DNA from: Lama guanicoe
Lineage: Eukaryota
DNA: 29,965 bases
Direction of reading: 5' to 3'
Assembly: GCA_013239625.1 (NCBI GenBank)
Contig: MU053881.1
Coordinates: 16,856,373-16,886,337, forward strand
Position numbers and translations under genes: made by a program. Shown here in pieces: positions 5,439-28,670 of this stretch (its first letter is position 1; every line of letters begins with the position of its first letter). Below the pieces are notes generated by a model. The model searched no databases. It had not been told where the DNA came from and saw only the letters and a program-made list of their open reading frames with translations.

Positions 5439-6386
5439 ATGCAGGGAGCCAACCTCTCAGCAGTGACTGAATTCATCCTCATCGGCTTCTCCACCTTCCC
5501 CCACCTCCAGCTGATGTTCTTCCTGCTCTTCCTGCTCATGTACCTGTTCACGCTGCTGGGCAACCTGCTCATCATGGCCACCATCTGGAGCGAGCGCAGC
5601 CTCCACACCCCCATGTACCTCTTCCTCTGCGCCCTCTCCATCTCTGAGGTCTTCTACACCTTCACCATCATCCCACGCATGCTGGCCGACCTGCTCTCCA
5701 CCCACCGCTCCATTTCCATCACTGCTTGTGCCAGCCAGATGTTCTTCTCTTTCATGTTTGGCTTCACCCACTCCTTCCTGCTCACCATCATGGGCTATGA
5801 CCGCTACGTGGCCATCTGCCACCCCCTGCGCTACAACGTGCTCACGAGTCCCCGTGGCTGTGCCTGTCTGGTGGCCTGGTCCTGGGTTGGAGGCTCAGTC
5901 ATGGGGCTGGTGGTGACATCAGCCATTTTCCAGCTCACCTTCTGTGGCTCTAATGTGATCCATTATTTTGGCTGCCACGTGCTACCTCTCCTGAAGTTGG
6001 CCTGTGGGGGCAATGTCTACACAGTGGCCATGGGCGTGGACCTAGTGTGTATCACGGCCTTGCTGGGATGCTGTCTCCTCATCCTCCTCTCTTACGCCTT
6101 CATTGTGGCCACCATCTTGAGGATCCCCTCTGCTGAGGGCCGGCACAAGGCCTTCTCCACCTGTGCGTCCCACCTCACCGTGGTGGTTGTGCACTATGGC
6201 TTCGCCTCCGTCATCTACCTCAAACCCAAGATTCCCCAGTCTCTGGAAGGAGACACGCTGATGGGCATCACCTACACGGTCCTCACTCCCTTCCTCAGCC
6301 CCATCATCTTCAGTCTCAGGAACAAGGAGCTGACGAATGCCATGAGGAAGACCTTCCTCAACAAGCTCTACCCAGAAAAAATGTGA
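5439..6386 (+). CDS. OR10H1: Olfactory receptor, OR10H1/H2/H5-like, 315 aa (MQGANLS...KLYPEKM)
   Basis: Intact ORF with OR motifs GNLLI, LHTPMYLFL, MGYDRYVAICHPLRY, KAFSTCASHL, PFLSPIIFSLRNKE and an N-terminal NLS sequon. Resembles OR10H1 as recalled. ATG 5439 lies 11 nt after a candidate acceptor (cacctcacttcAG, 5426-5427). The ORF track start at 5376 is probably intronic. Confidence 0.93.
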   Translation: MQGANLSAVTEFILIGFSTFPHLQLMFFLLFLLMYLFTLLGNLLIMATIWSERSLHTPMYLFLCALSISEVFYTFTIIPRMLADLLSTHRSISITACASQMFFSFMFGFTHSFLLTIMGYDRYVAICHPLRYNVLTSPRGCACLVAWSWVGGSVMGLVVTSAIFQLTFCGSNVIHYFGCHVLPLLKLACGGNVYTVAMGVDLVCITALLGCCLLILLSYAFIVATILRIPSAEGRHKAFSTCASHLTVVVVHYGFASVIYLKPKIPQSLEGDTLMGITYTVLTPFLSPIIFSLRNKELTNAMRKTFLNKLYPEKM

Positions 6387-8805: not shown

Positions 8806-9756
8806 TCAGGAGCTTAGAGGAGAGAATTTTCTGTGGAAATTTCTCTTTATGGCATTCTTCAGCTCCTTATTCCTGAGGCTGAAAATGATCGGGCTAAGAA
8901 AAGGGGTGAAGACTGTATAGGTGGTGGCCATCAGAGTGTTGCTGTCCATGGAATGGGGGCCCTTGGGCTTGAGGTAGATGATGGAGGCAAAGCCGTAGTG
9001 CACGATCACTATGGTGAGATGGGACACACATGTGGAGAAGGTCTTGTGCCGGCCCTCAGCTGAGGGGATCCTCAAGATGGCGGCCACGATGAAGACATAC
9101 GAGAGGACGATGAGGAATAAACACCCCATCAAGGCTGTGACACAAACCAGAATCACAACCATGGTGAGAGCAGATGTTTCCTTCCCACAAGTCAATTTCA
9201 AAAGAGAAAATACATGGCAGAGGAAATGCTGAATCACATTAGAGCCACAGAAGGTGAGATGAAAAACTATCAATGTCAACATCATCCCCATGACTGAGCC
9301 ATCAGCCCAGGACCAGGACACAAGATGAGCACAACCACCAGGGCTCATGAGCTCGTTGTAGCGCAGGGGGTGGCAGATGGCCACATAGTGGTCATAGCCC
9401 ATGCTCATGAGCAGGAAGGAGTGAGTGAAGCCAAACGTGAAGGAGAAGAACTTCTGGCTGGCATAGGCCACGAAGGAGATGGAGCGGTGGACGGAGAGCA
9501 TGTCGACCAGCATTCGAGGGGTGACAGCAACAGTGAACAGAATCTCGGAGATGGAGAGGGCACACAGGAAGAGGTACATGGGTGTGTGGAGGCTGTGCTC
9601 CCTCCAGATAGTGGCCATGATGAGCAGGTTTCCCAGGAGCGTGAACAGGTACATCAGCAGGTACAGCAGGAAGAAGGTAGGCAGGAGATGCTGAGGGAAG
9701 TTGGAGAAGCCAATGAGGATGAATTCAGACATTGTGCTATAGTTCTGACCAGACAA
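8806..9756 (-). CDS. OR10H4: Olfactory receptor OR10H4/OR10H3-like, copy 1 (open frame but damaged key residues; begins at TTG, predicted exon start 9767)
   Basis: 316-codon open frame with OR motifs. First codon is TTG (plus-strand caa 9754-9756); in-frame ATG at codon 9. C98Y, M102K and DRY>DHY relative to the paralogs in this window. Confidence 0.85.
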   Translation of the reverse strand: MSGQNYSTMSEFILIGFSNFPQHLLPTFFLLYLLMYLFTLLGNLLIMATIWREHSLHTPMYLFLCALSISEILFTVAVTPRMLVDMLSVHRSISFVAYASQKFFSFTFGFTHSFLLMSMGYDHYVAICHPLRYNELMSPGGCAHLVSWSWADGSVMGMMLTLIVFHLTFCGSNVIQHFLCHVFSLLKLTCGKETSALTMVVILVCVTALMGCLFLIVLSYVFIVAAILRIPSAEGRHKTFSTCVSHLTIVIVHYGFASIIYLKPKGPHSMDSNTLMATTYTVFTPFLSPIIFSLRNKELKNAIKRNFHRKFSPLSS

Positions 9757-11159
9757 GGATGCTGCATCTGGTGAGATCAGGAACAGAATGAAAGCACAGT
9801 GGTTAAAACAGAGGTTCTAACATAGATTAAACAGCAGTTGAAGAAGTCTATACTATATAACTATTTGCTTAACTTGTCTGAGTCAAAATCTTCATCAGTA
9901 AGATGGATTAAATCATAGCAGTTCCTACCATTCAGCATTGTGATAAAGATAAAGTGAATCAGTATATTAAGTGCTTAAAACATAATTTGACCACTGGGTT
10001 CTTATTAACAGTGTCAAAAATAAAGAAATGCTCTCATTTTTGAAACCACTAAAAACAGACATGCAAAAGCAAGGTCATATGCTATTGAACAGTGTGCCTG
10101 TTATAGAAAATGTATTTGGATCTTGGGGTTAAAAAATTCCTTCAGCGTCCTGTGTTTAAAGTGATTGTTGAACCCATTACATGTATTTTATTGGTACTCA
10201 TTTATGTCATCTTATTTCATATTTGTATTTATTTATAGTAAAGGAACTGAAGAGAAAGTTTCAAAGTAAAAGGATGGACAAATATATGGTAGGCAAATAT
10301 GTACAAAAGGAAGGCTGAAGCAGCAATCTTCAAAACAGAAAAAAATGAGATTGAAAGAAACAACAATTACAATAACTATATTTCCGTATTCCACTAAAAG
10401 GACCAGTGTTCCTGGAGAGATGGTCTGGGCAAGGAGCACGCCTTGTACATCTTGTGCCAGAGTAAAATAAAACTTTCACTGTAAAAGGTTAATGTTAAAA
10501 GAAGGCGGCAACCGGATTGAAAACGTGTCCATTGGCTTAAGCTGATCATCAAAGCAAATGATCGTTGTACGGATGATGGAGGAGAAAAGTAAATGACACC
10601 ACAAGGAAGCAACTAGGCAAATCCAAAGGTGGAACATTCCACAGAACAATTAATTTAGTCTCATCAATGAGCCAACGTCATGAAAAGAATGACCAGAATT
10701 CCGAGCGACATAACAACCGGATGCAATATAGGGTACCAGATTGAATCTTGATTTAGATAAACCAGCTATAAAGTATTGTTAAAGGAATAGAGACAACATT
10801 GTTTATGATATGAATGAATGATGAGGTATGAATAATATTAAGGGGTTCTTATTTATTTAGTTATTAGTTTTATGTGTGATCATGTTATTTTGGCTGGGAA
10901 GGAAAATATTCTTAGTTTAAGTGCATCCCTGAAATGTACAAATCACACGTGTACGTGTGCCAAGGGACAAAGAGGATTATTTCATACAGGTTAGAAGAAC
11001 ATCGTAGTTTCCATCATAAATACAATTAATCGATGTAACAATATACTCTGGCATATTAAGTAACAAGTAATCGGTACAATTCTAGTGAAAGAGATATAAA
11101 ATAAAAATAGTTAATGAATAATAGACAGATTTAAAAGTTTAGCTAGAAATTTAAATACA

Positions 11160-16151: not shown

Positions 16152-17267
16152 TTAGTAGCTTAGGGGACAGAATGTTCTGTAGAAGCTTCTCTTTATGGCA
16201 TTCTTCAGCTCCTTATTCCTGAGGCTGAAAATGATCGGGCTAAGAAAAGGGGTGAAGACTGTATAGGTGGTGGCCATCAGAGTGTTACTGTCCATGGAAT
16301 GGGGGCCCTTGGGCTTGAGGTAGATGATGGAGGCAAAGCCGTAGTGCACGATCACTATGGTGAGATGGGACACACATGTGGAGAAGGTCTTGTGCCGGCC
16401 CTCAGCTGAGGGGATCCTCAAGATGGCAGCCACGATGAAGACATACGAGAGGACGATGAGGAGTAAACACCCCAGCAGGGCTGTGACACAAACCAGGATC
16501 ACACCCATGGTGACAGACAATATCTCCTTCCCACAGGCCAACTTCAATAGAGAAAGCACATGACAGACAAAGTGGTGTATCTCATTAGACCCACAGAATG
16601 TGAGATGAAAAACTATCAATGTCAACATCATTCCCATGACTGAGCCACCAGCCCAGGACCAGGACACAAGATGGGCACAGTCACGTGTTCTCATGAGCAT
16701 GTTGTAGCGCAGAGGGTGGCAAATGGCACAGGCAAAATGGTGGATCTCATTAGACCCACAGAAGGTGAGATGAAAAACTATCAGTGTCACCATCATTCCC
16801 ATGACTGAGCCACCAGCCCAGGACCAGGACACAAGACGAGCACAACCACCAGGGCTCATGAGCATGTTGTAGCGCAGGGGGTGGCAGATGGCCACATAGC
16901 GGTCATAGCCCATGATCATGAGCAGGAAGGAGTGGGTGAAACCAAACGTGAAGGAGAAGAACGTCTGGCTGGCACAGGCAGTGAAGGAGATGGAGTGGTG
17001 GATGGAGAGCATGTCGACCAGCATTCGAGGGGTGACAGCAACAGTGAACAGAATCTCGGAGATGGAGAGGGCACACAGGAAGAGGTACATGGGCGTGTGG
17101 AGGCTATGCTCCCTCCAGATGGTGGCCATGATGAGCAGGTTTCCCAGGAGTGTGAACAGGTACATCAGCAGGTACAGCAGGAAGAAGGTAGGCAGGAGAT
17201 GCTGAGGGAAGTTGGAGAAGCCGATGAGGATGAATTCAGACATTGTGCTATAGTTCTGACCAGACAA
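16152..17267 (-). pseudogene. OR10H4: OR10H4/OR10H3-like copy 2, 371-codon open frame with a 55-aa internal tandem duplication (probably non-functional)
   Basis: All OR motifs present. Segment AICHPLRY...IHHFxC occurs twice (16892-16728 and 16727-16563). First codon is TTG (17265-17267). Confidence 0.75.
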
Positions 17268-18437
17268 GGATGCTGCATCTGGTGAGATCAGAAATAGGAT
17301 GAAGGCACAGTGGTTAAAGCAGAGGCTCTAACCTAGATTAAATGCCAATTGAAGACCTCTATATAACTATTAGAAGAAGACTTATAAGTATTTATTTAAG
17401 TTATCTAGTTGTCACAATCTTCATCAGTAAGATGGAGTCAATCATAATTGTTCTTATCATTCAATAATGTGATAAAAATAAAATTAGATCAGTATTTTAA
17501 ATGCTTAAGATACAGTTTGGCTAGTGGGTTTTTATTAATTACAGTGACTAAAAAATTAAAATTTAGCATTTTTGGAGGCACTGAAGACAAACATAGATGA
17601 TCAGGGCCATAATCTCTTGAATAGTGTTCTTGTTCTAGAAAATCTTTATTTGGATCTTGGGGCTCTAAAAATGTTTTCCTCTAAGAGACTTTGTCTTTTA
17701 ATTGATGATTTAACACATTTATCTTTATTTTAACTATTTTAATGCTACACTTTTTTCCGATGTTGTTTCATATTCATATTTACTATTCTAAATTAACTGA
17801 ACAGAAAGTCTGAAAATAAAAGGGTGGAATAATATATGCCAGGAAAAAATGTATCAAATGAAAACTGAGGCAGAACTCTTAAAAACAGACAAAATTAAAT
17901 GCAAGGAAACAATACTTATAACATCTCCATTAACATTTGTCACTCAAAAACATCAGGCTTCTTTGGAGAAATTGTCTAGGGCAGGAAGTAAGCTTAGGAC
18001 ATCTTGTACCAGCATGAAATGAAACTTTAAAGTGAGTAATGGGTTAATGTTAAGTGGATGCCAGGACCAGATTGCAAATATGCCCATTCACCAAAGCTGA
18101 TTGCCAAAATGAAGGATTATGTTACAAAGGATGGAAGAGCAAGCTAAATGACACTATAAGGAAGCAATCAGACAAATCCAAAGATGGAACATGCTGCAGA
18201 ACAATTGGTCTTGTCTCATGGATACCAGGGTGATGGAAAGAATAAGGAGAAATTCAGGAAATATAACAATCAGACGCAATATAGGGTACTAGCTTGGATA
18301 CTGATTAAGATAAAACCAGTGCAAACTAATTTTAAGGCAATAGAAAAAACTTTGATATGGTTTGTATGAATAAGTAGATATGAACAATATGAGATTATTA
18401 TTAACTTAGCTATTAATTTTGAATGTTACCTTGTTAT

Positions 18438-18593
18438 AAAAACAAATTTCTTCTGTATAGCACAGGGAACTATAGTCAATATCTTGTAATAACCTTTAAT
18501 GAAAAAGAATATGAAAACAAATATATGTATATATATGTATGATTAAGACAGTATGTGGTACATGAGAAATTGACACGTTGTAAATGATTTAAA
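18438..18593 (+). mobile_element. Short 5'-truncated lineage-specific L1 3' end
   Basis: ctgtatagcacagggaactatagtcaatatcttgtaataacc... Absent in units 1 and 3; degenerate cttgttat direct repeats flank it. Confidence 0.75.
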
Positions 18594-19811
18594 AATGTAT
18601 CTTGTTATTTTGGCAGTGAAGAAAAAAATTCTTAGTTTAAATGTATACTGAAATTAAATATTACACAAACACACCCCCCCATACTCCAAGAGAAAATTAA
18701 GAATATTTTATTAAGCACAGAAGAACATTGAAATGATTGGCATATCATTAATCTATGTAACAATATACCCTGGAATAGTAAGTTATAAATTAATCAACAG
18801 AATCTCATTGAAATAGCTATAAGTAGAAAGAGATAAATCAATACTAGATAGGTAGATGAAACTTGTAGTTAGATATTTTCACAGAGTTTAGAAAGGCAAT
18901 TTATGAATTATTATAATGCAATTTATAATATTTAGACATTAGCTATTGGACATATTCAGACTCTTCAGCAAAGAGAGATTAAACATTTTTTAAGCCTACA
19001 GGGAACTTTTTTCCCCCAAAATTTACCTCATATAAGGACATAAAAACATTCTCCAATCCAAGTATAAATATGATACAGATTATAGTGTATTAAAAGTAGA
19101 AATTGATAGAGGAGTAACTTTTCAAACACCCTGTGTTTAGAAGCTAAATGTATTATTAAATAATCTTTTGTTACAATAGTAAAACAAAGTAAATTTTAAC
19201 ACGTTTATAATTAAATAGTTCAAGCATCTAATGTCAAATATTAAGCTAAGAGTATGATGAAAGATCTACATAGCTTTATAATATACTTATCAAGAAGAAA
19301 GTCATGCTTAATAAAACTAAAATCAGGTTGGAAAAGATTAATAAGATAAAAAGAAAGAGAAAATGCCAACAAGAAAATACAAAAAATTAAAATTGAGAAA
19401 TAACTACAGAATTAATGGATATTTTTAAATTAATAAGAATTGTAAGTAAAATACAAGTTGGTAAATTTGAAACAGTAGATTAAGTAAATTCTTAGAAAAG
19501 TATAAAATTCCAAACCTGGTGCAAGAAAAAATAGGGATCCTGGAGACTCAAGTAATTTTAAAGAAACTGAAAAGGTTAATGAAATGCTGTCCCTCCCCAA
19601 TATCCTTGGTCCCAGTGGGTTTACAGGTGATCTCTCTTAAACTTTTAAGAAAGAGTTGATAAGTATCTTATACTTATTCTTAAAAACCAGAATAAGCATA
19701 TGAAATCTGCTCACTTCATTTCATTAGCTTAATGCAATCTTGATTTTAAACCAGGTAAATTGTTAATAAGAAAAGAAAATTACGGGCCCACCATTTCATC
19801 TATCCATGCAG

Positions 19812-19971
19812 GTTTTTTTTAACATTTGTTTATTGAGTTATAGTCATTTTACAATGTTGTGTCAAATTCCAATGTAGAGCACAATTTTTAAGTTATACAT
19901 GAACATACATATATTCATTGTCACATTTTTTTTCGCTGTGAGCTACCACAAGATCTTGTATATATTTCTCA
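19812..19971 (-). mobile_element. Short L1 3' end, antisense, with 12-bp TSD
   Basis: Poly-T start and L1 3' text. TSD CTATCCATGCAG at 19800-19811 and 19972-19983; single copy in units 1 and 3. Confidence 0.85.
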
Positions 19972-20356
19972 CTATCCATGCAGATTTAAAGTCATAAGAA
20001 GACATAACGTAGTAAAACCCAATGGTTTTTCAAAAATGGTATATTATAAGCAAGTGGTTTTGGTTTCTCTCATAAATGACATGGATGGTTCAGCATCAGA
20101 AAACCTATCATGTGACTCATCAGGTGAATACACTAAAACAAACAAACCATATAATTATTTCAATTAAGGCAAGAATATAATTTTTAAAATTCACGTCCAA
20201 TTTATGATTTTAGAAATTGGTGCGCAATATTATTTTAGTTTTATACCTACAACATAATGATATGATAGATGTACAACTATTATGCTTTTTAAAAAAAACT
20301 CTTTGCAACATGTTACGGAAGGGGACTTTCTTAACTAGGTGAAGAATATATACTAC

Positions 20357-21807
20357 CGATACTGGCACAAAAACAGACACATAGATCAATGGAACAGAAC
20401 AGAGAGTCCAGAAATAAACCCATGCACCTATATTCAATTAGTCTACTACAAAAGAAGCAAGAATATAAAATGGAGAAAACACAATCTCTTCAACAAGTGG
20501 TGCTGGGAAAACTGGACAGCTGCATGTAAAAAATGAGATTAGTACATTTCCTCACAATATATTCAAAAATAAACTCTAAATGGATTAAAGAGTTAAATGT
20601 AAGACCTAAAACCATGAAACTCCTAGAAGAAAGCACAGGCAGAACAGTCAGACATAAATTATAGCAATATTTTTTTGGATCTGCCTCCTAAAGCAAAAGA
20701 AATAAACACAGAAATAAATGGAATCTAATTAATCTTAAAAGCATTTACACAGTGAAGGAAACCATCAACAAAATAAAAAAAGAACCTATGGAATGGGAGA
20801 AAATGTTTGCAAAGTTTATCACCAACAAGGAGTTAATATTCAAAATATATAAACAGCTCATACAACTTGATTTCAGAAAACAATCTATCAAAAATGTGCA
20901 GAAGACAAGAATGGACATTTTTCCAAAGAAGACATACAAATGGCTAACAGGAACATGAAAAGATGCTCAACACTGTTAATTACTAGACAAATGCAAATCA
21001 TAACAACAGTGAGATACCATCTCATACCTGTCAGAATGGCTATCATCAAAAAGTCTACAAATGAAAAATGTTGGAGATGATGTGGAGAAAAGGGAACACT
21101 TGTACAGTGCTGGTGGGAATGTAAATTGATGCAGCCACTATGGAAAACAGTGTGGACGTTCTTCAGAAAAATTAAAAATAGAGCTACCATATCATCCAAC
21201 AGTTCCACTCCTGAGTACTTACTTGGTAGAAATGAAAACACTAATTTGAAAAGATACATGCACCTTAGTGATCATAGCAGTACTATTTACAATAACCAAG
21301 ATTTGAAAGCAACCCAAGTGCCCATCAGCAGAAGGATGATTGGCTTAAGAAGATGTGGTATATATAGTATTCAGCCATAAAAAAAGAATAGAATTCTGCC
21401 ATTTGCAGCAACGTGGACGGACCTAGAGAACATTATGCTAGTGAAATAGACAATGATAAATACTGTATGATATCACGCATATGTGGAAAATGTAAAACAG
21501 TGCAAAAGAGTGTACATGCAAAACAGAAACAGACTCACGATATAGAAAACAACTAGCAGTTACCAAAGAGGAGGAAGATAGGGAACAGGAAAATTCAGGA
21601 TATGGGATTAAGAGATACAAACTACTATGTATAAAATAGATGTGCAGCAAAGATGTATCGTATAGCACAGGGAGTTACAGCTATTATCTTGCAATAACCT
21701 TGAATGGAGTATAATTTGTAAAAATACTGAATCACTATGCTGTACACCGGAAACTAATACAACATTGTAAATCAACTATACTTCAGTTTAAAAAAAAAAC
21801 CTTAAAA
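20357..21807 (+). mobile_element. 5'-truncated L1 (end of ORF2 + 3' UTR) with 15-bp TSD
   Basis: ORF2 fragments [31 protein letters not shown] and a poly-A tail. TSD AAGAATATATACTAC (20342-20356) / AAGAATATGTGCTAC (21808-21822); empty site in units 1 and 3. Confidence 0.92.
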
Positions 21808-23397
21808 AAGAATATGTGCTACAAAACTAGCAGGTAGCTTACTAATGGGGAACTTTTGACGCATTATTTTAGGATCAAGAATCCAAGGTTACTTACTGTC
21901 TAGGCTGTTCTTTAAAATTGAACTGAAAGCCATGAGCAGTGCTCTAAGGAAAGGAAAAGAGAGAAGCTATATAAGGTTGGGAGGGAAGAAACATGGTCAG
22001 GTACCAAGAAAGGGTGAAAGAATCAAGATGTAATATGTTAGAACAAAAAAAAGCACAAAGCTGCGGAAGGCAAACCGACTTCCCCAAAACATAGTATTTC
22101 TCGTGGTATTACGCCAGCAATTATCTCTCAAAACATAGAACTGAAGTTAAGCAGGCGAAGACTCTTAAGAACGATACAAACTGTGAAGTAAAAGCCCTCA
22201 ACCATTTGCTCTTAGGATCCTCTCACAATAAAACACTGAGTTCCCAAAGGGCTTTTGTTTGAAGGGGATCAGAACTATCAATCTTTCCCATTTCAGAAAT
22301 CGAACCTGAGGATCTTTTAAAGGATTTGTATTAGTGTATCTAAAATAACAACAATAAATCTATTACATTTTAATATAGTGACATTTTAAGGAAAGTAATC
22401 ACATTTTCAAATAATAAGTAGTGATAATAGTGGTCCTGTTCTACATTTTCGCAAGTACGTTCCTCGTCTGGCCTGGTGGTAGACGACCTAATGCTGTGTC
22501 TGATTCTCTGTCAGCCTGTGACGGTATGTCGTTTTACTTGACACATGTGACAAAAATATATCCTCACGTGTACTGCCAAGGTAGGGACCTGGTGGACCCC
22601 CAGAAAGAGTATCAGGGAACCCCGGGGGCCTCATATTATATTTTGAAAACCTTTGCTATGAAATATCTAGGATTCAACAACAAACATGCAATACCTCCGA
22701 AGACAAAAAGGTTAGCGAACAATAAAAATGTGGAGGATGATCTGAATACATGGAAGCTGTTTACTTTCCTGGATGGGATGATCTAATATGATAATGGTGT
22801 CACTTCTTCCCCCAAATAACACCATCAGTCCAATTGCATTTACGACTCCAGTGAATGGACTGTAAATTTAGTAACTATCCTAAATTTCCTCTGAAAAATA
22901 AAGTCAGTGCAAAACGATACTCATCTTATCATTATTACTGTGAGCAGGAGAGATTTGTCTTCCCAGGGATTATGGCACATTCTAGAGTCGTAATCATTTT
23001 TAAAAATGTGAAACAGGAACAGGCATAGACATCCATTAAATTGACTGGATATCTCAGAAAATATCTCATTATTATTCATAATGTAATATGTGATAAAGGT
23101 GGCAGCACAAATAAAGGAAAAGACGCATTGTTTCCCAGTTTGTGGTAGGAAAACTGTTCATTTTATGAAGCAAAGTAAATCCGAATTTCTGCCAAAGACC
23201 ACATGCAAAGGTGGAATCCAGATGGATTCAAGACATAAATGTGAAACAAAGTATAAAGTTAATATGAGAAAGTGAAAGAGAATTACTTTGTGGATCTTAG
23301 TAGTGAAGAAGGACTTCCTAAACCAAACTTCTAAAGCACAAACGTTAAGTTGATTTTTAAAAGACATGAAAATGTCAACGTTAAGAATTTCTGTTCC

Positions 23398-23604
23398 TGC
23401 TAACTACTATACGTAGGCTAGATAAACAAGTTGATCCTATATAGCTCAGGGAACTATATTCAATATCTTGTAGTAACCTATAATGAAAAAGAATATGAAA
23501 AGGAATATATGTATGTATCCGTATGACTGAAACATGATGCTGTACACCAGAAATTGACACAACATTGTAAACTGACTATACTTCAATTAAAAATGGAAGA
23601 AAAG
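23398..23604 (+). mobile_element. Short L1 3' end with perfect 14-bp TSD
   Basis: tatagctcagggaactatattcaatatc...actgactatacttcaattaaaaa. TSD AGAATTTCTGTTCC at 23384-23397 and 23605-23618. Confidence 0.88.
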
Positions 23605-24110
23605 GAGAATTTCTGTTCCCCAAAGATATCCTTAATAAAGTTAACAGGCAAATGGAAAACTGGGACAAGATCATTTGCACTGTGTAAAACCGACAAGAGA
23701 ACACTCTGGAGAAGAACAAACAAGAAGAAATAGGACCCTCAATACAGATGTGAATGAAGGATATGAGCAGAAAAGTCGCAGAAGGATTTACTCAGGCAAA
23801 TGAAAGGATGCTCAAAAAAAAAAAGTTGGGGAGATGAATAAAAGCAATGAAATTTTACTGTATATGTATTCAGTTCCCCAGGTTAGAATTGCTTTCTTGA
23901 TGTGCAAATGGGGAGAAAGGAATCCTCCTGCATTGCTGGTGAGAATGTAGAATGGTGAAAATCCAAACTACACCAGCAAATTCATACCATATCATTAAAA
24001 ATTGGTTAAAATCCACAGAAATTACAACACAAAAAGTGAGCCAGAAGGTAAGCTATGGACTTCAGTAATAATAATAGATCTATTTTCTATATAGTAGTGT
24101 GTATCTATAT

Positions 24111-24157
24111 AATACTACTACTACTACTACTACTACTAATAGTAATAATAATAATAA
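24111..24157. repeat. Compound microsatellite (TAC)n(TAA)n
   Basis: aatactactactactactactactactaatagtaataataataataat. Confidence 0.9.
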
Positions 24158-24204
24158 TCTGTAACGGTTCATCAGTTGGAACAAATGTACCACGCTAACA
24201 CATG

Positions 24205-24352
24205 TTTGTACAATATTTAACAGCATCCCTGACATCAGCCATCAGATGTCTGTAGCATCCCCTCCCTCCCACAATCATGACAAGCAAAACTGCCTCCAGA
24301 CATGTCCAAACATCCACTGTGGGGCAGAATGACCCCAGGCTAAGAACCCCTG
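24205..24352 (-). mobile_element. MER20-like fragment
   Basis: cagcatccctg...ctccagacatgtccaaa...ggggcagaat...aagaacccctg is the reverse complement of the MER20 5' half. Confidence 0.65.
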
Positions 24353-24533
24353 ACGCAGAAGCTGCAAAGGGCACCTAGGCTTGGTGAGAACCTGGAAGTC
24401 AGAGGGGTAAACAGAGAAGACCCCCAGCTGCCTCCCAAGCCTGAGATCCTCTCTTCTGGCCCTTCTCCCCAGCCCTGACCCCATCCCCAGGCTTGGCGGT
24501 GCTGCCCACAACCGTATGGTGCTTCCTTCCTAC

Positions 24534-24576
24534 CCTCTCTGTCCTGGTTCCCCTCTCCCTGGCCTGCCTCTTCCAT
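24534..24576 (-). CDS. Predicted upstream coding exon segment for OR copy 2 (MEEAGQGEGNQDRE + 1 nt)
   Basis: ATG at 24576, 43 nt open, GTAGGA donor at 24533. Phase 1 matches the acceptor at 17279/17278. Confidence 0.55.
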
Positions 24577-24679
24577 GAAGTGCCCAGCAGGAAAGGGCAG
24601 AAGGAGCTCTCCTGTTGGATGCTGTCAGCGGTACCCACAGGCAGGTGTGGGATTGGACCTAGGGGCTCCTAGAACTCAT

Positions 24680-24980
24680 CCTGTGTGCTTTATCCCTGCT
24701 GCAGGCTGCCAGCAGGCTGCTCCCTAGGGCCTCTCCAAGACAGCAACCTAGAAGATCTGTCCTCAGGGTCTGGAGAGGCTGGGAGGGACCTCAAGGGGCC
24801 TTTGGGAACTTGCAGCCTCTACTCCTTCCTCCAACTGTCCACACACAACAAAGGTCTCTGGTGTCACCTCTTCCCAGAAAGAACCCAGCCCTTGCTGAAG
24901 TCTGAGGAGCTCCCAGTCTAGGGGGTGGGGTTGGAGGACAGGGCTTGAAATAGATGCCCTTAGTCCCTTGGGGTGTAGGG
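24680..24980 (-). promoter_or_regulatory. Candidate promoter of OR copy 2 with clustered O/E (EBF)-like sites
   Basis: TCCCTAGGGC 24721-24730, TCCTCAGGGT 24760-24769, CCTCAAGGGG 24789-24798 and TCCCTTGGGG ~24964-24973. Paralogous to 14400-14770. Confidence 0.45.
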
Positions 24981-25706
24981 ATAAGGTTAGAGGGAAGGCA
25001 GGAGCTGGAGGAGCCTAGAGTGAGATTCCAGGGCTGGATGGCTTTTCAGAATAAGAGTCATTTGGGACTGGGTCCTGGGGACTGGTTTCTTATGTGCAAT
25101 GTGTCTTCTGGCCAAACTAGACGGCCCCACCTCTCTTCCCAAATTCTGCTCTATTCCTATTGTCCTGGTGATCCAGGGAGACAGTCTGACATTCGCATGT
25201 GCCTCCCTGTGATAAGATGTAACGTAAAACAAACATAAAAAAAATTTGGTCTTTTGGTGGTGTCTTTGGTTCCTGACCCTCTGAAAAGAGTGTCTTTTTA
25301 TGCTAATGAGATGACTGATGACTATGGGTTTATCTTTATGAAATCACTTTTGCCTCCAACTCAAATATTTGGTCTCATCTTTGAGTTAATAGTTAACATG
25401 CCACAAAGGGCCCCCTTCCTGGATCCTCAGTGACATATATTCTCAAACACCAGTGTGGGAGTCAGATAGACCTAAACCTCCTTGTGACTCCCTTCATTCA
25501 CATTTGTGTGACCTCTGCCAACGCTTCTCATCTTCATAATGAAGGGACCATCTCTGACCTCTCTCTGTTCCATATTGAGATAGCACTCTGCCTTTCAACT
25601 CACTCCCCAAACAGCTGCAACTTTAACACAGTAATAAAAATGGATGTTGTATTGAAAATTATGTGTGGGAAAAATGGAAAGGGATTTCAATAAGATGTCA
25701 GCAGCA

Positions 25707-25874
25707 GGGGGGGAGGGTTTAGCTCAAGTGGTAGAGTGTGTGCTTAGCATGCATGAGGTCCTGGGTTCCTTCCCCAGTATTTCCTCGAGAATAAATAAAA
25801 TAAATAATTTAATTAATTAATTAATTAATTAACCTAATTACCGTCCCCCCCGAAACATAACAAAACAAAACAAA
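25707..25874 (+). mobile_element. tRNA-derived SINE (camelid Vic-1-like)
   Basis: G-rich 5' end, A box TAGCTCAAGTGG, B box GGTTCCTTCCC, (TAAT)n tract and (CAAAA)n tail. TSD AAGATGTCAGCAGCA (25692-25706) / AAGATGTCAGTGGCA (25875-25889); empty site near 15443. Confidence 0.85.
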
Positions 25875-26790
25875 AAGATGTCAGTGGCACACTTTTACAT
25901 GCCTGTGTTCTTACCTAAGCACTGACCCCCTCTTCCCTTTCTCTCTCCTCCCTTTCTTTCTTCCCTCTTCCTTCTTACCTCCATCCTCTTCCCTTCTTCC
26001 CCATCCTCATATGCATATTGCCTTAGTACCAACCTCCTTCTCCTTCCTTCCATCTTGCCCAGATTCTGCCCCATATATTTTTTAAATGATCAATTAAATA
26101 ATCAATTAAATGGTCAGATCTCTTTAAAGGACTTTATTCCCCCTAGCCTAGCACTCTCTTGTCTCTCTCTCTCTGTCTCTCTCTCCCTCTTGCTCTCTCT
26201 TCACTTTGCATTCTAACTTCCTTCACCCAGTTCAGCGCAACAGAAAAACTTGCCTTGCAGTCTATAGCTCCAAAACCTAGCACAAAACTGTAAAGAACAC
26301 ACCATTTTCTCTAAGGCAAGAACTTTTTTTTGTACATTTGCTGTAATTAAGATATAATAATAATAAAACATTAGGCACAGTACTTTATACATAAAGACTC
26401 AATTCTGGTGGCACTTATCACTATCCTTGTAATTTTATTCTTATTTTGAGGGGTGGGGGAACGAAGCCTTCTTGTGCTAGTCCATTCAAGAAGAATCATG
26501 TCCATCAGGGGCCTGACACTTCCCTGTGATGCTCTCCACCTGCCTATAGATAGATAATGCATTCTAAGGCACAGATAATGTGATGGAATTCATCTCACTG
26601 GGTAAAAATAAGAGACTTTGATGGCTTGGGCCTATGCAAGAGGGGAAAGCAAGTTGGAGAAAAGCAAACATCTAGTACACATCTAACTCCTATGGAGTGG
26701 AGGTATTTTCGGAGACCTGAATCACCACAAAAGCTGTATGGACACAGACATTATTAAACCCAAATCATCTGTCACATTTCCATGCCACCA

Positions 26791-27741
26791 TCAGGAGCTT
26801 GAGGGACAGAATGTTCTGTGGAAGGTTCTCTTCATGGCATTCTTCAGCTCCTTATTCCTGAGGCTGAAAATGATCGGGCTAAGAAAGGGGGTGAAGACTG
26901 TATAGGTGGTGGCCATCAGAGTGTTGCTGTCCATGGAATGGGGGCCCTTGGGCTTTAGGTAGATCATGGAGGCAAAGCCGTAGTGCACAATCACTATGGT
27001 GAGGTGGGACACACATGTGGAGAAGGTCTTGTGCCGGCCCTCAGCTGAGGGGATCCTCAAGATGGCAGCCACGATGAAGACGTAGGAGAGGATGATGAGG
27101 AATAAGCACCCCATCAGGGCTGTGACACAAACCAGGATGACACCCATGGTGACAGATGATGTCTCCTTCCCACAGGCCAACTTCAATAGAGAAAGCACAT
27201 GGCAGAGAAAATGGTGGATCTCATTAGACCCACAGAAGGTGAGATGAAAAACTATCAGTGTCACCATCATTCCCATGACTGAGCCACCAGCCCAGGACCA
27301 GGACACGAGACGGGCACAGTCACGTGTGCTCATGAGCACGTTGTAGCGCAGGGGGTGGCAGATGGCCACGTAGCGGTCATAGCCCATGATCATGAGCAGG
27401 AAGGAGTGGGTGAAGCCAAATGTGAAGGAGAAGAACATCTGGCTGGCACAGGCAGTGAAGGAGATGGAGCGGTGGGTGGAGAGCATGTCCGCCAGCATTC
27501 GAGGGGTGACGGCAACAGTGAACAGAATCTCAGAGACGGAGAGGGTGCACAGGAAGAGGTACATGGGGGTGTGGAGGCTGCGCTCCCTCCAGATGGTGGC
27601 CATGATGAGCAGGTTCCCCAGGAGTGTGAACAGGTACATCAGCAGGTACAGCAGGAAGAAGGCAGGCAGGAGATGCTGAGGGAAGTTGGAAAAGCCGATG
27701 AGGATGAATTCAGACACTGTGCTATAGTTCTGACCAGACAA
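26791..27741 (-). CDS. OR10H4: Olfactory receptor OR10H4/OR10H3-like, copy 3 (most canonical; begins at TTG, predicted exon start 27752, first exon outside the window)
   Basis: 316-codon open frame with intact ACASQMFF, MGYDRYVAICHPLRY, KTFSTCVSHL and PFLSPIIFSLRNKE. First codon TTG; no in-frame ATG until Met35 in TM1; in-frame TAG a short distance upstream. Confidence 0.9.
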   Translation of the reverse strand: MSGQNYSTVSEFILIGFSNFPQHLLPAFFLLYLLMYLFTLLGNLLIMATIWRERSLHTPMYLFLCTLSVSEILFTVAVTPRMLADMLSTHRSISFTACASQMFFSFTFGFTHSFLLMIMGYDRYVAICHPLRYNVLMSTRDCARLVSWSWAGGSVMGMMVTLIVFHLTFCGSNEIHHFLCHVLSLLKLACGKETSSVTMGVILVCVTALMGCLFLIILSYVFIVAAILRIPSAEGRHKTFSTCVSHLTIVIVHYGFASMIYLKPKGPHSMDSNTLMATTYTVFTPFLSPIIFSLRNKELKNAMKRTFHRTFCPSSS

Positions 27742-28670
27742 GGATGCTGCATCTGATGAGATCAGAAATAGGGTGACGTCACAGCGGCTAAAACATAGGC
27801 TCTAACATAGATTAAATGGCAATTAAGGACCTCCATACTATATGATCTGGCACTATATAAATGTGCCCATAGGCCACAGCTGAGCACCAAAGAGTGATAA
27901 TATGTAGAGGATGGAGTAACTAGCTAGATGACACCATGAAGAAAAATTAGAAAATCCAGAAGGCAAAATGTTCTATAGAACACCTGGTCTGGTCTCATCA
28001 AGTCAGGACGAAGAAGAGGGTGAAGAGGAATTCAAGGGACATAACAACCATGTGCAATATTGGGAATCAGATATTTAGATAAGCTAGTTGTTAAGTAGTT
28101 TTAAGGAAATAGGTAAGATTTTGATTGTGGTATGAATGAATGATGAGTTAAAAATAATATGAAGAGATTATTCTTAATCTAGTTGTTAATTTTAAGTGTG
28201 ATCTTATTATTTTGGCTTTGAAGGAAAGTATTACTAGCTTAAAAGCATATTGAAATTTAAAATGTACACACACATGCACACAACAAGAGACAAAGAAGAC
28301 CATTTTATGAAGATTATTGGAACATTGTACAACCTGCATGAATATAATTAACCTGTAGAACAATATACCCTAGATTATTAGTAATAAATAAAGAACACCA
28401 CTTCTGTGAAACAGATATGAGATAGGAATAGCTAAATCAATACTAGATAGACAGGCTAAAAAGTTGAAATCACAAATTTTAACAGAATTCAGAAATGTAA
28501 TTTGGGAATTATCAGTTATAATACAATTAATAATATTCAGACATTAGCTCCTGGATATAATTGGGCTCCTCTCCAGAGATCAAACATTTTCTTTTCAACC
28601 AGAAAGAGGGGTTTAACAAAATTTGACCTTGTTTTGGACTCAGAGAAATTCCCCATCCACTTTGAAATGT

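Follow-up and report, generated by a model that had tools for sequence, protein, structure and literature searches.

We analysed a stretch of Lama guanicoe DNA (the window: the terminal 29,965 bases of contig C1866, which stops at the window end) carrying three OR10H3/4-like olfactory receptor (OR) frames on the minus strand: unit 1 at 9767-8806, unit 2 at 17278-16152 and unit 3 at 27752-26791. Translation of unit 2 probably starts in an upstream exon of 45 nucleotides (nt) at 21941-21897, here exon B, and a 43-nt ATG-led piece at 24576-24534, which the original prediction had described as a coding micro-exon, would form the 3' end of a leader exon, here exon A, that lies farther upstream. The split start itself is likely a real layout of an already known kind. 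In the proposed mRNA, exon A would end at the donor 24533, exon B would follow after an intron of 2592 nt, and the main exon, from 17278, after another of 4618 nt. Initiation at ATG 21933 would add 16 residues to the usual 316 and retain the N-Y-S glycosylation site, while ATG 24576 would be an in-frame upstream ATG of optional use, at which some ribosomes may start and whose peptide would not be kept by selection. We infer splicing and initiation throughout from the sequence. Since the unit 2 copy is broken or mis-joined as assembled, the layout is best understood as a feature of the family.

The main exon of unit 2 (16152-17278, minus strand) is, by its homology, an olfactory receptor of the OR10H3/OR10H4-like type (Pfam PF13853, 7tm_4, E-value 2e-51). 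At the usual start position it has TTG (17267-17265) in place of ATG. A TTG 11 nt past the acceptor AG (17279-17280 in unit 2) is found in all three genes of the window and in three of the four other units examined; the fourth has ACG. In human OR10H3, the RNA-supported exon start annotated by GENCODE (15741382) also lies 11 nt above the coding start (15741393; PMC7055050), and this agreement makes it very likely that the acceptor 17280-17279 is real and that the usual ATG has been lost. Human OR10H3 resembles unit 2 further in having an upstream exon, a single one 3.3 kb away, but that exon is annotated as untranslated and the human ATG is kept. The methionine at the usual start position is missing in 33 of the 87 OR10H proteins scored (from bovids, carnivores, horse, pig and camels), and databases assign to such proteins many differing first exons or a truncation of 282 residues.

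The receptor might also be made without any coding upstream exon, from TTG 17267 or from the internal ATG 17243, or unit 2 might be dead and its upstream ATGs leftovers. We regard this as quite unlikely. The internal ATG has A at -3 in units 1 and 2, unit 2 carries a 55-codon duplication, and Barnes 2020 (PMC7055050) left out cases where a downstream conserved methionine yields a full-length open reading frame (ORF). However, a start at ATG 17243 falls after the N-Y-S sequon and would lose it, and ORs usually have one N-terminal glycosylation site, considered important for surface targeting (PMC4626375). The position is occupied by Val or Ile in unit 3, three other units and the camel models covering it, with Val in unit 3 and in the dromedary orthologue (model P0001, below). 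An out-of-frame ATG opening a 37-codon frame stands at the very beginning of the main exon in six of the seven units examined (17278, 9767 and 27752 in the window), ahead of the internal ATG, and open frames without the usual methionine persist in many mammals, as counted above. Because ATG 17243 drops the sequon, varies to Val and is preceded by the out-of-frame ATG 17278, an upstream in-frame start appears to be needed, that of exon B being the conserved candidate. The earlier claim that the receptor requires an upstream phase 1 start is borne out, and the donor at 24533 is kept in all five copies described below. The out-of-frame ATG would have A at -3 after either upstream exon and could shield downstream starts.

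A genome search with the flagged piece gave nine matches: five distinct spanning copies, one identical extra on contig C7075 and three matches stopping short. The five paralogous copies are 75-79% alike and form a near-star tree with branches of 0.12-0.18 substitutions per site. Scanning with a shared N-terminal peptide located exon B at ATG 21933 in unit 2, at ATG 13309 in unit 1 (13317-13273, minus strand) and in three further units. In unit 2 (minus strand, phase 1-1) the candidate exon consists of 8 nt and, from ATG 21933, 37 coding nt (MAFSSILKNSLD plus one base). Splice donors conform to the consensus MAG/GTRAGT, and the exon B donor GTAAGT (21896-21891) matches it at seven of nine positions. 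A micro-exon has at most about 51 nt, with an acceptor and a donor on both sides. In all five copies an acceptor AG and a GT donor stand 45 nt apart with the ATG between them, and 16-19 of the 19 positions before the AG are pyrimidines. The ratio of nonsynonymous to synonymous differences per site (pN/pS) of exon B is 0.44 on 36 nt.

Protein models from other species point to the same exon. We considered 160 protein relatives in total, the best 120 of 380 hits and 40 further proteins from hand-picked clusters. The exon B peptide starts 10 of the 120 (dromedary, yak, dingo, macaque, lemur, loris, owl monkey, gelada, baboon and marmoset) and six more of the 40. The start methionine and the junction are conserved in the five paralogous copies and in models from camel, yak, canids and primates. 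A query with residues 1-40 of the model P0031 recovered seven proteins and nothing new beyond the 120 best hits. In the dromedary model P0001, which fuses two adjacent genes, the stretch ALLMAISSVLKNSLDNAASL is orthologous to exon B, has identical acceptor and donor and is followed by a receptor with the diagnostic residues of unit 2. The 305-residue models of baboon and gelada have seven residues and then the FPQ stretch, the seven matching the second half of exon B. Other first exons proposed in camel and bovid models (P0002-P0004, P0010, P0019, P0121 and P0158) differ from one another, two mapping to single unrelated places and the rest nowhere, and were rejected as inconsistent picks of the predictors.

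The letters of the flagged piece were found as originally described: ATG 24576-24574 on the minus strand, 43 stop-free nt to 24534 (MEEAGQGEGNQDRE plus one base), GTAGGA from 24533, six first codons shared by units 1 and 2, and distances to the main exon of 7255 nt (24533-17279) and, in unit 1, 4508 nt (14275-9768). The unit 1 copy of the piece lies at 14318-14276. The donor (24533-24528) is in phase 1 relative to ATG 24576 and matches six of nine consensus positions. The reading of the piece as a coding micro-exon spliced directly to 17278 over one 7255-nt intron is very unlikely to hold. The direct join stays in frame in phase 1, with the donor present in five of five copies, and exon B, whose length is a multiple of three, could be skipped harmlessly, perhaps giving this join as a minor form. 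Against it, the 190 nt or so nearest the donor contain no AG behind a good pyrimidine tract, which leaves ATG 24576 without a micro-exon acceptor ahead of it, the best upstream AGs giving exons of 199-236 nt; the identity of the piece is not above that of its flanks, one of the two outcomes that the original prediction had itself named as refuting it; and a single intron is not supported, since a stronger exon, exon B, with support across mammals lies inside the interval.

Exon A would rather be a first exon of about 130 nt below the TATA-like box GATAAA (24694-24689, minus strand), which is found 161 nt above the donor in all five copies, or an internal exon of 228 nt from AG 24762 (24763-24762, after 14 pyrimidines in 19). 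OR promoters are enriched in O/E sites within 200 nt above the start and have a TATA-like box nearby (Young et al. 2011, PMC3247239). Three O/E-like sites occur at corresponding places in units 1 and 2, and with the relaxed pattern used their enrichment near exon A was not significant over shuffles (P 0.23-0.56). In a Bos javanicus model the reading frame continues through the homologous sequence just past the exon A donor, with 13-14 of 20 residues matching, and this block therefore predates the camel-cattle split. The start of contig C2199 and the end of contig C2660 are identical over some 49 bases, an overlap that falls at the GATAAA box; C2199 probably continues C2660, which would make another copy of the cluster with the exon A ATG.

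The 43 nt had also been taken to be constrained beyond their surroundings, and the alignment of units 1 and 2 does not bear this out. They are identical at 37 of 43 positions against an ungapped identity of 81.5% in the block (binomial P 0.29), a value reached by 12% of 1390 sliding 43-column windows and by 34% of the gap-free ones, which make up 25% of all such windows. Windows adjoining the piece score 37, 36 and 35, and the best-conserved window of the pair is 24801-24759. Across the five copies the invariance of the 43 nt is raised (28 of 43, with 5.6% of windows as high). The gap-free plateau (24613-24518) begins 37 nt before the ATG and is equally conserved there, which fits the end of an exon and not a coding piece bounded by the ATG.

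A signal of coding constraint is likewise absent. The length of 43 nt and a GTA(A/G)GA donor are present in five of five copies and the ATG in three, the other two having TTG and TTA; the junction is thus conserved and the start methionine is not. Between units 1 and 2, four of 14 residues differ. Summed over pairs of the five copies, pN/pS is 0.77 with 9, 9 and 9 of 14 columns invariant by codon position; for the receptor body the figures are 0.24 and 91, 91 and 74 of 100 columns. A pN/pS of 1.02 over the opening 36 nt of the main exon shows that OR N-termini are under weak constraint, which leaves this test little power. The exon A peptide starts none of the 160 OR10H proteins. A search of longer proteins with the first 40 unspliced residues of the frame from 24576, a weak test, gave one candidate and none at E <= 10. 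Two ATG losses on five branches are close to the neutral expectation, which we estimate at 1-2, and no unit that bears the ATG is demonstrably intact. These values do not support the view of the piece as a constrained coding exon, and suggest that the 43 nt are likely the 3' end of a 5' leader exon with an optional in-frame ATG.

The same data bear on a reading in which the mRNA has three exons and ATG 24576, as the first AUG, is the working start, so that exons A and B both code and the N-terminus grows by 33 residues. Whichever of exon A, exon B and the main exon are joined, the frame is kept: in unit 1, where exons A and B are 958 nt apart, the product would have 332 residues from exon B, 334 from exon A joined directly and 349 from both. 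With the 43 nt of exon A and the 8 nt that precede ATG 21933, ATG 24576 shares the reading frame of ATG 21933 and of the receptor, in unit 2 and likewise in unit 1. ATG 24576 is the first ATG after the predicted transcription start, and the 43-nt frame is free of stops in all five copies, both ATG-less copies standing above pseudogenes. Yet the ATG is missing in two of five copies, about as expected under neutrality on such branches, no excess of change at third positions accompanies the pN/pS of 0.77, and the peptide was found neither among the 160 proteins nor by database search (weak evidence). By the Kozak rule ATG 24576, with T at -3, has only a moderate context, as does ATG 21933. In the unit 2 copy, and there only, a second AG (21943-21942) lies 2 nt above the exon B acceptor; its use would put ATG 24576 out of frame in a 24-residue upstream frame and leave ATG 21933 unaffected. 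We consider this reading unlikely, and prefer initiation in exon B.

Initiation in an upstream exon has precedents among OR genes. In the class 1 split ORs of Barnes 2020 (such as Olfr1174-ps, Olfr1175-ps and Olfr1177-ps; PMC7055050), the main exon has no conserved start, the upstream exon next to it supplies the ATG and the first residues, and the intron interrupts the N-terminal domain. Unit 2, with TTG 17267 11 nt past the acceptor, would be alike in these respects, and its predicted 4618-nt intron is within the reported 550-22628 nt. It differs in having two in-frame ATG-bearing upstream exons and an internal duplication and in being known here from sequence alone, whereas that study requires a junction supported by at least three RNA-seq reads. 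Among coding ORs, in-frame upstream ATGs are reported for 13.6% in human and 21.5% in mouse (Table 1 of Barnes 2020, PMC7055050); ATG 24576 would be one of them, but two exons above a startless main exon. Human OR10H4, of the same subfamily, is listed there as a split gene. Its transcript ENST00000641275 (305 residues, RNA-seq tag) is interrupted by an intron at residue 7; the exon before it has 114 nt, 22 of them coding, and an 80-nt non-coding exon lies 1.2 kb above that coding micro-exon (PMC7055050). Both genes would have a short upstream coding exon ending in phase 1 with a further exon before it, non-coding in human, and primate models of the isoform match the exon B peptide, from which we infer homology to the human letters. 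They differ in that human OR10H4 keeps the usual ATG and its exon starts at the second methionine, whereas the camelid gene has TTG and its second methionine is Ile. We found no paper on split OR10H genes in camelids, most subscription papers lying outside the search.

Several points weigh against a start in exon B preceded by a leader exon. The pairwise identity of exon B, 36 of 45, is reached by 5.5% of windows, and its pN/pS was computed on 36 nt. The interval 25900-17279 holds 17 candidates that combine an ATG with a phase 1 donor, and because this chance background is not small the outside support for exon B matters. The models from other species are themselves predictions that may copy one another or the human annotation. 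For exon A, both ATG-less copies lie above evident pseudogenes (one with a frameshift, one with a stop), which has about one chance in ten and speaks mildly for the original prediction. In human OR10H4 the acceptor is 55 nt inside the coding region and the exon has 114 nt, not 45, and Olender 2016 (PMC4982115) counts the OR10H4 transcript as one with a disrupted frame. The first exon of human OR10H4 (chr19:15944299-15944378) may be homologous to exon A.

The consequences concern mainly annotation. Where the main exon lacks an ATG, camelid and other OR10H3/4-like genes have often been modelled with a 282-residue truncation or with conflicting first exons, and both the tally of functional smell receptors and the constructs chosen for odour screening are affected. 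The 45-nt exon, once named, supplies a single N-terminus that can be tested. Should both upstream ATGs be used, the gene would be a compact case in which to ask whether several N-terminal forms arise from one OR gene, a question that Barnes 2020 (PMC7055050) leaves open. A wider and rather doubtful proposal is that, early in the history of hoofed mammals and carnivores, the OR10H3/4 clade lost the start of its main exon and now depends on upstream exons, that in camelids two tandem phase 1 exons with in-frame ATGs give, by splicing and leaky scanning, three N-termini (16, 18 and 33 extra residues), and that such genes are often catalogued as the 282-residue truncations.

Unit 2 is not intact as assembled. 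It contains an in-frame tandem duplication of 165 nt (55 codons; 16563-16892, minus strand) with copies 90% alike, which would add a helix. The frame is open for 387 residues from ATG 21933, and the seven-helix layout in an intact ORF of at least 300 residues that marks a split OR gene is absent. The two copies of the duplicated segment resemble different paralogs, the second matching a Vicugna paralog, and both ends match the Bactrian camel model P0058, which itself has no duplication. The coding region thus appears broken or mis-joined, and an assembly error may be the cause. At 99.9% identity (six substitutions and a single indel of 15 nt), the segment 21021-27400 recurs on C7075 (1404200-1410600, 6.4 kb), in flanks that are about 93% alike between the contigs. 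This suggests a doubly placed haplotype block or very recent gene conversion between two OR10H clusters. The dromedary model P0001 favours the linkage of exon B to unit 2 seen in the window. In 15 DNA runs from four organisms, 0.73-0.80 of the words of 16700-26000 are present (word content only), and the region therefore exists widely; the listed RNA runs contain 0.05-0.10 of the words of the stretch and were counted as no evidence. C7075 shows further irregularities: a different duplication, of 373 nt, at 1400286; one 5' end in three copies 2.3 kb apart at 1410956-1415645; and, at 1415222, a chimeric receptor coding stretch joined straight to the second half of an exon B copy. The 165-nt duplication, those of C7075 and the chimeric join are probably assembly artefacts.

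The excess length of the unit 2 interval had been attributed to LINE-1 (L1) content, and this accounts for part of it. A 5'-truncated LINE-1 of 1451 nt at 20357-21807 (plus strand, antisense to the gene) is specific to unit 2 and missing at the unit 1 site. Its ORF2 homology, A-rich tail and target-site duplication identify it as LINE-1: ORF2p was recognized by a PDB search (E-values 1e-17 and 1e-21), and the 15-nt duplication (20342-20356 and 21808-21822) is alike at 13 of 15 positions. A Pfam search matched none of the six frame fragments of the element. A further segment of 1.6 kb (24331-22704) is not present in unit 1 and is largely common to the other paralogs, so that this difference is most likely a deletion from unit 1 and not a lengthening of unit 2. 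The 1451-nt LINE-1, the 1.6-kb segment and a pair of short repeats, offset by some 0.8 kb of inserted sequence in unit 1, make up the 2747-nt excess over unit 1, and the LINE-1 accounts for about half of it. Short interspersed repeats in and above unit 2 lie at 25701-25900, 23413-23603, 19815-19968 and 18440-18576, the first of which we take to be a camelid short interspersed nuclear element (SINE).

The other genes of the window vary in their integrity. The main exon of unit 1 (8806-9767, minus strand) has an open frame in which the cysteine of the third transmembrane helix (TM3) is replaced by Tyr and DRY by DHY, given which the receptor may be inactive despite its open frame. That of unit 3 (26791-27752, minus strand) is open, with TTG at the start and no internal methionine ahead of TM1; its closest named relatives, among the best 120 of 380 hits, are OR10H3/4-like proteins of Camelus and Vicugna at up to 96% identity. 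The upstream exons of unit 3 are past the contig end, exon B being predicted about 85 nt beyond it from collinearity with C7075:1457054. The single plus-strand OR frame of the window, OR10H1/2/5-like, lies near 5439, and no convincing homologues of exon A or exon B were found above OR10H1/2-like genes. Outside the window, 13 kb to its left near C1866 16843400, an additional OR10H3/4-like unit has both upstream exons and a frameshift from the loss of 10 nt, and stands head to head with the plus-strand OR10H1-like gene.

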